Below, piece after piece: positions 16,171 through 17,529 of a stretch of 20,000 bases of DNA. Made by a program: the position numbers and the translations under genes. Position 1 is the stretch's first letter, and the number at the start of each line of letters is the position of its first letter. Below the pieces are notes generated by a model. The model saw only the letters and a program-made list of their open reading frames with translations. It was not told where the DNA came from and searched no databases. This stretch comes from Rozella allomycis CSF55 (lineage: Eukaryota): assembly GCA_000442015.1 (NCBI GenBank), contig KE561047.1, positions 53,014 to 73,013 of the forward strand. The letters run 5' to 3'.

Positions 16171-17529
16171 ATGAAATTTTCGATTGTTTTTGCAGACGAC
16201 TCTATTTTTCTACTGTCATCATATACTTTCAAAAACACTTCGCTTATAGATATATCAAATCAAGAAGAAATACTATTACTTCAGTTCAATCATGAATTCT
16301 TTCACTTTCTTTCGTTAACTGGTTTGACGCCAGGAGAGGATATGATCAATTCAAATATAGACGCGAGTATGTTTCTCTTTGCGCCAATAAAAAATTTAAG
16401 GGACCATATAGACTGGGATTTTATTACCAGCATTGTTAGAAAGGAACATCTGTGTAACAGGAAAAGCGAATACGTGTATGCTGAATTACTTCGAAGCTAC
16501 TACAGAATTTTACGTTGCACTGAAACATATCCTGATGATTTCTTTAACTCGATGGAAGGAAAGAAAGAGAACACATTTACTTATCGCGAGTTTTTTCAAA
16601 GGAAATTTGGTTATAACATTATAGGTGAGCAAGCACTAATTGAGCTAGAAGTGGGTGCGAAAAACAAAAGAAATAAACTAATGATTCCCCAGGAATGCGT
16701 TAAATATGTTGACGAAAGGCTCATACATTTAAGAAGCGTGGATTTTGAATCTATCCACCAGGTTTTAGTAAAAGTTCATTCAGAGATTTTCTTTAACTGG
16801 AAAAGTATATCTATTACAAATTGTTTCAAATTTCTTTCTACTGACCATGCACGACTACGATATATTGGTGACGCGCTACTAGATTGCTATGTATTGAAGA
16901 AATTGATTAACCTGCATCCAAATGCAGATAAAAACTTTATAGAAAACCAAAGAATGAAGATAGTTAACAATGTAAATTTAGAACGTTGCTATTCTGACTT
17001 GAAACTTAGTGTTATGTTTGATTTAGTCAATGGAGATATAAGACAGTTTATATATCAATCATTTGCTTTTAAAACATCTAAATACTCAAAAGAAATATAC
17101 AAAGCATTTAGACCGAAGCAAGTTTGCTCCCCTTCAAAAAAAGTAAGCTCAGACATTGTTGAAGCCTTGCTCGCGTACTTTTTTATTCATGAGAATGATG
17201 AACAATGCTTACGGTTATTATCGAATATTACTCGTTTGAAAGAAGAATCATTCATTGCGTCTGAAACATCTGTATTGACGCACAGCGCAAATTTTGAATA
17301 CTTGGGAAAGTATGTAATAAATGCGTATGTTGCATATAATTTGAAAGATTCATTGTGTCTGCCCCATAAAGAAATTATAGATAAGAACTTGATAAGAAAG
17401 GCATATTTAGACTTTGGCTCATGTCTAAAAAGAAATGAAGAACAAACTAGAATATATTTCGGCAAGCTATTTTCAAAGAATGATTTAATCAAAGTCTTCA
17501 GAGAAATGCAAAATATGGTGCAAAAATAA
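16171..17529 (+). CDS. Minimal, divergent Dicer-like protein (platform/PAZ-like + RNase IIIa + degenerate RNase IIIb), about 452 aa, intronless
   Basis: IDWDFI; PAZ-like TYREFFQRKFGYNI..EQALI..LMIPQEC; RNase III signature ARLRYIGDALL..LHP..RMKIVNNVNL..KVSSDIVEALL; second remnant NFEYLGKYVI. The first ATG is at 16171. Confidence 0.75.
   Translation: MKFSIVFADDSIFLLSSYTFKNTSLIDISNQEEILLLQFNHEFFHFLSLTGLTPGEDMINSNIDASMFLFAPIKNLRDHIDWDFITSIVRKEHLCNRKSEYVYAELLRSYYRILRCTETYPDDFFNSMEGKKENTFTYREFFQRKFGYNIIGEQALIELEVGAKNKRNKLMIPQECVKYVDERLIHLRSVDFESIHQVLVKVHSEIFFNWKSISITNCFKFLSTDHARLRYIGDALLDCYVLKKLINLHPNADKNFIENQRMKIVNNVNLERCYSDLKLSVMFDLVNGDIRQFIYQSFAFKTSKYSKEIYKAFRPKQVCSPSKKVSSDIVEALLAYFFIHENDEQCLRLLSNITRLKEESFIASETSVLTHSANFEYLGKYVINAYVAYNLKDSLCLPHKEIIDKNLIRKAYLDFGSCLKRNEEQTRIYFGKLFSKNDLIKVFREMQNMVQK

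Follow-up and report, generated by a model that had tools for sequence, protein, structure and literature searches.

A Candidate Minimal Dicer-like Gene with an Altered RNase III Center in Rozella allomycis

In a 20,000-nucleotide stretch of the genome of Rozella allomycis CSF55 (hereafter, the window), an uninterrupted open reading frame (ORF) of 452 codons plus a stop codon was found at positions 16171..17529 of the forward strand. Its product appears to be a divergent and minimal Dicer-derived protein. A partial platform and a PAZ domain are followed by a short linker, an RNase III domain in which one of the four metal-ligand acids is replaced by arginine, and a short helical module that may be what is left of a second RNase III domain. 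The reading that I prefer, with a confidence that is evenly balanced, is that this protein has at most one weakened catalytic center and is a binder of the ends of double-stranded RNA (dsRNA) or small interfering RNA (siRNA), or a nickase, rather than an enzyme that dices. Nucleotide positions below are those of the window, and residue numbers are those of the 452-amino-acid frame.

An RNase III Domain with an Altered Metal Site

The RNase III domain occupies residues 226-345 (16846..17205, forward strand), with the signature ARLRYIGD at 16849-16872 and a DIVE motif at 17152-17163. Pfam recognized it as PF00636 Ribonuclease_3 (residues 228-340) with an E of 3.3e-14 and a score of 53.9 bits, where the cutoff is 27. 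The best sequence matches of the protein among PDB structures in a phmmer search were Dicers, namely DCL3 (7vg2), DCL4 (9kby), DCL1 (7eld), and the Giardia Dicer (2ffl). In the RNase III domain, 25 columns are at least 80% conserved in a set of 44 Dicers; the Rozella protein has an identical residue at 13 of them, a similar residue at 3, and a different one at 9. Further conserved residues of the RNase III fold (R261, N267, and K324) are kept.

In the account of Aquifex RNase III given in PMC3867540, E40, D44, D107, and E110 coordinate the two Mg2+ ions. The metal-ligand set of the first Rozella domain is R230, D234, D328, and E331. Three of the four acids are kept while an arginine replaces the first glutamate, which leaves the domain one short of the four carboxylates of a catalytically competent RNase III. 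The placement of the signature with R230 was consistent in every alignment to Dicer profiles. The protein has also been deposited in a second version (RKP20710.1), which reads ARLRFIGD and has the aspartate and the DIVE motif, so that R230, D234, D328, and E331 are all unchanged. Since the arginine is present in this version as well, the exchange is real and not a sequencing error. The original prediction for this locus, which was made from the nucleotide sequence, had pointed out a first domain with an E-to-R exchange and with D, D, and E retained; Pfam, the Dicer-profile alignments, and RKP20710.1 all bear this out.

Is the altered center dead? Mucor R3B2, as described in PMC8136814, has an asparagine at the first-carboxylate position and the other three acids, and it still cuts single-stranded RNA (ssRNA). 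Because R3B2 lacks the first carboxylate and yet hydrolyzes RNA, the first center of the Rozella protein cannot safely be called dead.

The same prediction had labeled the domain as IIIa. Its position directly after the PAZ domain and the connector agrees with this label, while its sequence does not decide the matter. The domain scored 34 bits against the IIIa profile, 40 bits against the IIIb profile, and about 36 bits against a bacterial enzyme. In an IQ-TREE phylogeny of 66 domain sequences and 171 columns (every fourth Dicer, that is 30 of 119, plus two others and one bacterial sequence), it falls between the IIIa clade, which includes the bacterial sequence, and the IIIb clade; its branch is 3.1 substitutions per site long, and it is assignable to neither. 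Thus, the label holds for the position only.

Platform, PAZ, and Linker

A platform-like remnant (residues ~25-100, 16243..16470, forward strand) carries the Dicer motif FLFAPIKN..HIDWDFI, in which P72 and W82 are conserved. It is followed by a PAZ domain (residues ~98-185, 16462..16725, forward strand) with the hallmark TFTYREFFQRKFGYNIIGEQALIELEV...LMIPQECVKYV. In the Pfam scan, PAZ stayed below the threshold (15-16.9 bits against 28.8, E 0.0064-0.024). A 2025 survey describes this as usual for fungal Dicers, as PAZ went undetected in 86.7% of 2911 proteins (PMC12663654). Starting from a Cokeromyces protein, I gathered and aligned 120 Dicers, mostly fungal, and cut out region-specific profiles. 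The custom platform-PAZ profile (119 Dicers, mostly fungal) matched residues 63-162 with 18-19.5 bits and an E of 3.7e-7. The stretches FLFAPIKN..IDWDFI and TFTYREFFQRKF....LMIPQEC align with the Dicer consensus, and at the 8 columns of the platform/PAZ region that are at least 80% conserved across the 44 Dicers, 5 residues are identical and 1 is similar. The Dicer-type platform/PAZ motifs proposed earlier are well supported by the custom profile and these columns. As in Dicers, PAZ lies N-terminal to the nuclease core, both by the custom profile and in a structure model that was built from a Dicer alignment.

The platform domain is present only in part. In A3, a 45-row alignment of the query and the 44 Dicers, residues 25-100 align to residues 258-335 of one Dicer (P0050) and overlap its Pfam Dicer_platform match at 223-281. 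The N-terminus aligns with Dicer platform-region sequence in the MAFFT alignment A2, while the first ~24 residues scatter in A3; it was modeled as a beta-strand with a predicted local distance difference test score (pLDDT) below 50. No sign of secretion was seen in the N-terminal sequence (MKFSIVFADDSIF..., broken by two aspartates).

Between PAZ and the nuclease domain, residues 186-225 (16726..16845, forward strand) make up a short linker where, as the alignments suggest, Dicers have their connector ("ruler") helix. In the alignments A1 and A3, the linker runs collinearly with the stretch of fungal Dicers from PElC to ERLEFLGD, and it may be the counterpart of the connector. The AlphaFold pLDDT of residues 183-224 at this position is below 50.

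Pfam found no helicase, DUF283, or dsRNA-binding domain (dsRBD) in the 452-residue protein at E<=1, and the protein thus departs from the canonical Dicer architecture. Members of the family do not all carry these domains; the Giardia Dicer has neither the helicase nor the dsRBD (PMC10328071). Could the missing domains be encoded beside the frame? The upstream neighbor is a divergently oriented gene for a pyridoxal phosphate (PLP)-dependent decarboxylase, whose ATG lies at 16063-16065 on the reverse strand, and the downstream neighbor is a convergent Rpb6 gene (17563-17970, reverse strand) with its stop codon at 17563-17565. Since the spacers are only 105 bp and 33 bp, there is no helicase, DUF283, dsRBD, or further exon beside the frame. 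A protein devoid of these three domains, with flanks of just these lengths, had been described originally, and both the Pfam scan and the positions of the neighboring genes agree with that description.

The C-Terminal Module

The C-terminal helical module (residues ~366-452, 17266..17526, forward strand) reads VLTHSANFEYLGKYVINAYV... and ends with ...KVFREMQNMVQK. It is a putative remnant of an RNase IIIb domain, compressed and truncated. MAFFT L-INS-i runs with three sequence sets placed VLTHSANFEYLGKYVINAYV on the IIIb motif LTHAS...RLEFLGDAVLDFLV. T370, H371, E376, and G379 correspond to invariant columns in A2 and A3, and L378 corresponds to an invariant column in A2 and is the same as the IIIb consensus in A3. 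Downstream, the alignment is collinear, with R444, N448, and Q451 lying under the K, D, and E of PKvLsDvvE. The positions aligned to the four metal ligands in A3 are E376, K380, N448, and Q451, and one of the four is kept. If the alignment is right, the module would be a compressed IIIb domain that lacks the VNN..L helix and stops at the DxxE position. The NFEYLGK of the module is kept in RKP20710.1.

The similarity was assessed by a shuffle test with my own profile Smith-Waterman procedure (1000 shuffles, five gap settings). Shuffled sequences reached the real score in 21, 32, 551, 463, and 432 of 1000 cases with the IIIb profile, and in 128, 24, 9, 15, and 126 of 1000 cases with the IIIa profile. 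The result hangs on the gap cost (9-32 of 1000 with permissive settings and 126-551 of 1000 with strict settings) and is marginal. Language-model features of residues 346-452 alone gave weak neighbors (0.80-0.82), several of them with RNase III families, which is a lead only. I consider an RNase III (IIIb) origin of the module fairly probable.

A C-terminal dsRBD was considered as another identity of the module and was ruled out by the all-helical prediction and the absence of a Pfam match. As for the features of class-1 RNase III or Dcr1-type enzymes, the protein has no dsRBD match in Pfam and its C-terminus is predicted to be all-helical.

Reading Frame and Public Gene Model

At the local base composition (T 0.33, A 0.35), a stop codon is expected every 13 codons, and a stop-free run of 452 codons would occur by chance with P = 1.8e-16. 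The G+C content at the frame is 33%. The ORF of about 452 residues had been reported originally at these very positions, and every motif coordinate given with it is correct: 16846-16875 encodes H226-A235 (HARLRYIGDA), 17149-17166 encodes S327-A332 (SDIVEA), and 17290-17310 encodes N374-K380 (NFEYLGK).

The GenBank record for the gene is EPZ33596.1 (O9G_000371), a hypothetical protein truncated at 291 residues, which is named "RNase III domain-containing protein" in UniRef. An exact look-up of the 452-residue protein showed that it is absent from the protein collection. Residues 128-452 are 100% identical to EPZ33596.1 across 291 aligned residues, and the two gaps are the segments that the public model has removed. 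This model starts at M128 and splices out two in-frame GT..AG segments as introns. One of them (16610..16624, forward strand) is 15 nucleotides long, encodes YNIIG, and lies within the PAZ hallmark stretch. The other (17314..17400, forward strand) is 87 nucleotides long and stop-free, and extends the helix after NFEYLGKY.

The full-length reading is preferred for several reasons. The match of the platform-PAZ profile (63-162) crosses the annotated start M128. In codon usage, the 127 unannotated N-terminal codons give an in-frame signal like that of the remainder (0.091 bits per codon, versus -0.57 and -0.44 in the other frames; 0.107 bits per codon for the remaining codons), and the usage is coding-like along the entire length. 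The 15-nucleotide segment sits in the PAZ hallmark and is shorter than the only intron directly readable in the window, the 27-nucleotide intron of Rpb6; in general, 15 nucleotides are too few for a spliceosomal intron. The 87-nucleotide segment is stop-free, codon-aligned, and coding-like (0.064 bits per codon in the ORF frame versus -0.66 and -1.28 in the others). On these grounds, the 15-nucleotide segment is most likely coding and the 87-nucleotide segment is probably coding. The 452-residue reading is probably correct, and EPZ33596.1 should probably be extended to this length. In one metatranscriptome run, no contig matched positions 15900-17800 at 80% similarity, which bears neither way on expression.

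Structure Models

AlphaFold from the single sequence gave a pLDDT of 33. When driven by the alignment A3, it gave a model with a mean pLDDT of 63. The ten-residue means are 71-90 in PAZ (residues 111-180), 80-89 in the RNase III core (231-280), and 72-86 in residues 321-350. In a Foldseek search of this model against the PDB, the first 24 matches were Dicers (E 1.2e-7 to 5e-4), and Dicers took 29 of the first 33 ranks. By VIA-align, the nuclease domain of a bacterial RNase III (3o2r_B) was superposed on the model range 196-356 (Z 10.2, 121 residues), the PAZ domain of PIWIL2 (3qir_D) on 99-181 (Z 9.8, root-mean-square deviation (rmsd) 2.3 A, 80 residues), and the platform-PAZ-connector cassette of human Dicer on 97-189 (Z 8.1). 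Solved PAZ domains overall gave Z 8-9.8 and rmsd 2.1-2.6 A against the modeled PAZ. Drosha (5b16_A) gave Z 9.1 over 199 residues, with model residues 198-452 on chain residues 879-1223, which I take to be both RNase III domains (RIIIDa and RIIIDb). The four C-terminal helices of the model contribute to this two-domain overlay.

As the model was built on an alignment of Dicers, its likeness to them is not independent evidence; what it adds is that the query is compatible with the PAZ and first-nuclease folds at good local confidence. Structure prediction had been proposed as a check on PAZ and on a second RNase III fold. The modeled PAZ superposes on solved PAZ domains, while a second RNase III fold appears only in the low-confidence Drosha overlay. 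A two-copy complex prediction (residues 186-452, A3) scored 0.00 against a mark of 0.42 and bears neither way on a homodimer.

Relatives and Other RNAi Genes of Rozella

An exhaustive phmmer search of 1.84 billion representative proteins returned six matches at E<=1e-3. These are the gene's own model, four tandem-RNase III proteins (among them those of Paraphysomonas and Cokeromyces), and one bacterial RNase III; two of the four tandem-RNase III proteins have the full Dicer helicase architecture. A search for homologous proteins of near and longer lengths found only the gene's own model, and a scan of metagenome contigs gave 81 pattern matches and no relatives.

Other families of RNase III proteins were also considered. 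Rnt1 and Drosha were rejected as identities, as neither has a PAZ domain and the best sequence matches here are Dicers. The mitoribosomal mL44/mL57 proteins (PF14622/PF22935 type) have no PAZ domain either; the query scored 25.8 bits against PF14622, below the cutoff of 35, and had no match to PF22935. Mitoribosome chains came up in VIA-align only as generic fold matches (Z 8-9). The platform/PAZ homology also speaks against this mitoribosomal family, and mL44 was rejected as an identity.

RKP20710.1 and EPZ33596.1 are both labeled as the same strain, and they are identical at 273 of 291 residues (94%). Nine of the 18 differences are conservative. By region, there is 1 difference in 58 comparable residues of PAZ, 8 in the 120 residues of the nuclease domain, and 6-7 in the 78 residues of the C-terminus. 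The 94% identity may mean that the haplotypes are divergent, that one version is a paralogue, or that the gene evolves fast locally. For a NAP-like protein whose gene lies 2 kb away (13665-14327, reverse strand), an identical sequence is recorded on two contigs. If the second contig is that of the other assembly, the Dicer-like gene would evolve much faster than this neighbor. Rapid evolution has been reported for genes of RNA interference (RNAi), and a faster rate than that of the neighbor would fit either this or relaxed constraint.

Which RNAi genes does Rozella have? The Rozella entries of the 2025 survey name two Dicers, EPZ33509.1 (1271 residues) and EPZ34360.1 (1319 residues), each with DEAD, ResIII, Helicase_C, DUF283, IIIa, and IIIb (PMC12663654). 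Those of a 2017 survey name both full-length Dicers and EPZ36819.1 as dicer-like, together with the Argonautes EPZ32767.1 and EPZ31159.1 and the RNA-dependent RNA polymerase (RdRP) EPZ36820.1 (PMC5751038). The count for Rozella in a 2020 paper is two Dicers, two Argonautes, and one RdRP (PMC7313128). The genome-wide paralogue count suggested with the original prediction can therefore be taken from published supplements as two full-length Dicers, two Argonautes, and one RdRP. EPZ33596.1 is absent from the Rozella lists of these three papers (PMC12663654, PMC5751038, PMC7313128), and full-text literature searches, both on the gene identifiers and on Dicer or RNAi in Rozella, gave no paper that describes the gene. 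As a side observation, EPZ36819.1, which is not counted as a Dicer in the Rozella list of the 2025 survey, has an accession number adjoining that of the RdRP EPZ36820.1, and the consecutive accessions suggest that the two genes are adjacent.

EPZ33509.1 and EPZ34360.1 were not among the sequence matches of the Dicer-like protein in the phmmer and homologue searches. This suggests that the small protein is not a recent truncated copy of either, and that the split is old or the divergence extreme. It had been suggested that ordinary full-length Dicers as orthologues would point to mis-assembly. Because both full-length Dicers of Rozella are listed as separate genes, the frame is not a fragment of a mis-assembled one. 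The gene is an additional, previously unrecognized, long-branch Dicer-like paralogue.

Neighboring Genes

The window is a compact eukaryotic region with a G+C content of 30-43%. Its genes, several of which are in pieces, encode a kinesin, an ORC/Cdc6-like AAA protein, Pex19, a glycosyltransferase, NAP, the PLP-dependent decarboxylase, Rpb6, and Ham1/ITPase. These neighbors are ordinary housekeeping genes, and no RNAi gene was found among them in the window. In an exact look-up of seven neighboring ORFs, one (the NAP-like protein) was on record.

The Rpb6 intron (17713-17739, reverse strand, GTAAAA...AAAAG) lies between ...ALQI and SMNAPI... and is 27 nucleotides long. Thus, this genome has very short introns, a fact relevant to the handling of short in-frame GT..AG segments by gene predictors. 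The stop codons of the convergent Dicer-like and Rpb6 genes are separated by 33 bp (17530-17562). The 3' ends of both genes must therefore overlap or be extremely short, and a convergent overlap could be a source of natural antisense RNA.

Elsewhere in the window, a 104-residue open stretch (1315-1626, reverse strand) matches reverse transcriptase (Pfam RVT_1, 7.4e-15) and is probably a retroelement fragment. Three long open stretches at 5855-7093 (reverse), 3122-3937 (forward), and 405-1013 (reverse) measure 412, 271, and 203 residues from stop to stop. They had no Pfam match at E<=0.001, and their first-ATG versions were absent from the exact-protein look-up.

Interpretation

How might such a protein work? 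In the end-binder or nickase reading, the PAZ head would hold a dsRNA or an siRNA duplex by its 3' end. The IIIb remnant (E-K-N-Q) would pack on the first domain (R-D-D-E) as an intramolecular pseudo-dimer, and this pseudo-dimer would lie along the RNA helix. With at most one, weakened, catalytic center, a staggered double cut of the Dicer type would not be made. The protein would then most likely be an end binder of dsRNA or siRNA that does not cut, or that nicks a single strand, with an accessory role in an RNAi system of two full-length Dicers, two Argonautes, and one RdRP. I infer the IIIb origin of the C-terminus, the pseudo-dimer, the RNA binding, and the RNAi role. A more specific proposal, which I hold only tentatively, is that of a pseudo-Dicer that works beside the two full-length Dicers and recognizes Dicer products or dsRNA termini; it would either pass them on or nick the PAZ-bound strand only. 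In the variant that hands its ligand on, a protein of Dicer descent would do the work of dsRBD cofactors like R2D2 or Loquacious.

Several results weigh against the end-binder or nickase reading. For the C-terminal module, Pfam gave no match at E<=10, the custom IIIa and IIIb hidden Markov models (HMMs) scored about -1 bit, and hhalign gave a nonsignificant P of 0.08-0.22; its THS reads MHN in RKP20710.1. The original prediction of a shortened and dead second RNase III domain is therefore plausible but weakly supported: the collinear MAFFT placement, the Drosha overlay, and the language-model leads speak for it, while Pfam, the HMMs, hhalign, and the gap-dependent shuffle test do not. The alignment-driven AlphaFold model has a predicted template modeling score (pTM) of 0.46, with a pLDDT of 36-70 by ten-residue block in C-terminal residues 361-452, and its resemblance to a Dicer is partly circular, given the Dicers in the alignment behind it. 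At the first center, an arginine at a metal-ligand position might abolish catalysis entirely, or it might not. Searches of the 1.84 billion representatives, of 5.8 billion clusters, and of metagenome contigs found no orthologue of the gene. Furthermore, the 18 differences in 291 residues, set against the exactly matching NAP-like neighbor, fit fast or relaxed evolution.

The last two points would suit a decaying paralogue without function, that is, a truncated Dicer duplicate that has lost the helicase and half of IIIb and is drifting but has not yet acquired a stop codon. The long branch of its RNase III domain, its orphan status, the 6% protein divergence between two versions of the same strain, and the degraded catalytic residues in both nuclease modules are all as expected of such a relic. 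Nevertheless, I regard it as rather improbable, since a frame of 452 stop-free codons at 33% G+C is far from chance and shows coding-like usage throughout. RKP20710.1 is also open over its 291 residues, half of its 18 differences are conservative, PAZ has a single change in 58 residues, and D234, D328, and E331 are kept in both versions. A compact genome with spacers of 105 and 33 bp would also tend to lose dead DNA. The divergence has a different meaning if the protein is a parasite effector, namely an siRNA/dsRNA binder sent into the Allomyces cytoplasm to blunt host RNAi as viral RNase III-type suppressors do. Inside its host, Rozella lives as a protoplast that has no wall, fast evolution is typical of genes at the host-parasite interface, and PAZ with a disabled nuclease suits sequestration. 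However, the sequence gives no evidence of secretion, its N-terminus aligns with the Dicer platform region in A2 (though it scatters in A3 and has a pLDDT below 50), and nothing ties the gene to the host, so that this explanation is very improbable.

An active nuclease is the rival that I rate highest, although it too is unlikely. It would be either a strand-specific nickase with the R-D-D-E site or a non-canonical Dicer that acts as a dimer. In the latter, the RNase III domains of two molecules would pair, as they do in bacterial RNase III and Dcr1, or the domain would pair with a full-length Dicer, the C-terminal helices being accessory. Three of the four carboxylates and R261, N267, and K324 are kept, and R3B2 is described as active as a homodimer with an asparagine at the first position (PMC8136814). 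The similar scores of the first domain against the IIIb profile, the IIIa profile, and a bacterial enzyme (40, 34, and about 36 bits) point to a generic and self-sufficient RNase III domain, and the C-terminus is no more than a putative IIIb domain. On the other hand, arginine is a bulky cation at a position that the account of the Aquifex enzyme assigns to a Mg2+ ligand (PMC3867540), and there is no dsRBD for holding the substrate as in class-1 enzymes. For the dimeric version, the model puts the C-terminal helices where IIIb sits in Drosha; if it is correct here, they already take up the surface for dimer formation.

What defines a Dicer is a pair of active RNase III domains, which cleave the two strands at a distance measured by PAZ. 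If the pseudo-Dicer proposal is true, the Rozella protein would be a natural experiment that separates end recognition from dicing and, to my knowledge, the smallest PAZ-bearing Dicer relative. It would offer a compact model, smaller than the Giardia Dicer, for what PAZ and a nuclease pseudo-dimer do without dicing. It is also a candidate for a novel kind of accessory RNAi factor, from the lineage that connects fungi with microsporidia and in which RNAi was repeatedly retained or lost. In addition, the gene is a concrete example of how surveys based on domains count too few of the divergent Dicer relatives. It was missed in two surveys of fungi, partly because the public gene model is truncated.

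Comparison with Known Systems

Among the closest known systems is the Dicer of Giardia intestinalis (2FFL/2QVW), the "minimal Dicer", which, like the Rozella protein, has neither a helicase nor a C-terminal dsRBD (PMC10328071). Its domain order is platform-PAZ-connector-RNase IIIa-IIIb, which the Rozella protein would share if its C-terminal module is a IIIb remnant. The Giardia Dicer was a weak sequence match and the fourth Foldseek match of the model (E 1e-6). It is also not known to have DUF283, and it has two complete and active RNase III domains. In contrast, the Rozella protein has an arginine at one ligand of the first domain, and its second module is about half the length, ends at the DxxE position, and has one of the four ligands. 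The Giardia Dicer is 756 residues long, while the Rozella protein has 452 residues with a partial platform and a much shorter connector. Because the overlay of the two is poor (TM 0.24, rmsd ~21 A), only the domain order is comparable and not the geometry. Set beside this minimal Dicer, the Rozella protein is both smaller and further degenerated.

EPZ33509.1 and EPZ34360.1 belong to the same genome and the same family as the small protein. Compared by the domain lists published for Rozella, they have DEAD, ResIII, Helicase_C, and DUF283, while the small protein has none of these (PMC12663654). The closest named sequence relatives are Dicers of Mucoromycota, such as that of Cokeromyces recurvatus (XP_051382615.1). 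They share the platform motif FLAPL...IDW, the PAZ hallmark ..PElC, and the RNase III signature with the Rozella protein. In contrast, they are 1400-1700 residues long, have a helicase, DUF283, and full IIIa and IIIb domains, in some cases with a dsRBD, and are only 15-25% identical to the query.

Two further enzymes depart from the canonical Dicer in other ways. Dcr1 of budding yeast, the subject of work by Weinberg et al. in 2011, is said to be a non-canonical Dicer that, like the Rozella protein, lacks a helicase, and to have one functional RNase III domain. It reportedly has no PAZ but has dsRBDs, keeps all the catalytic residues, and works as a homodimer that measures from the inside out. 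Mucor R3B2, an atypical RNase III of a non-canonical RNAi pathway, comes like the Rozella protein from an early-diverging fungus and has likewise lost the first carboxylate (asparagine in place of the arginine in Rozella) while keeping the other three; it is described as a proven homodimer that cuts ssRNA only (PMC8136814).

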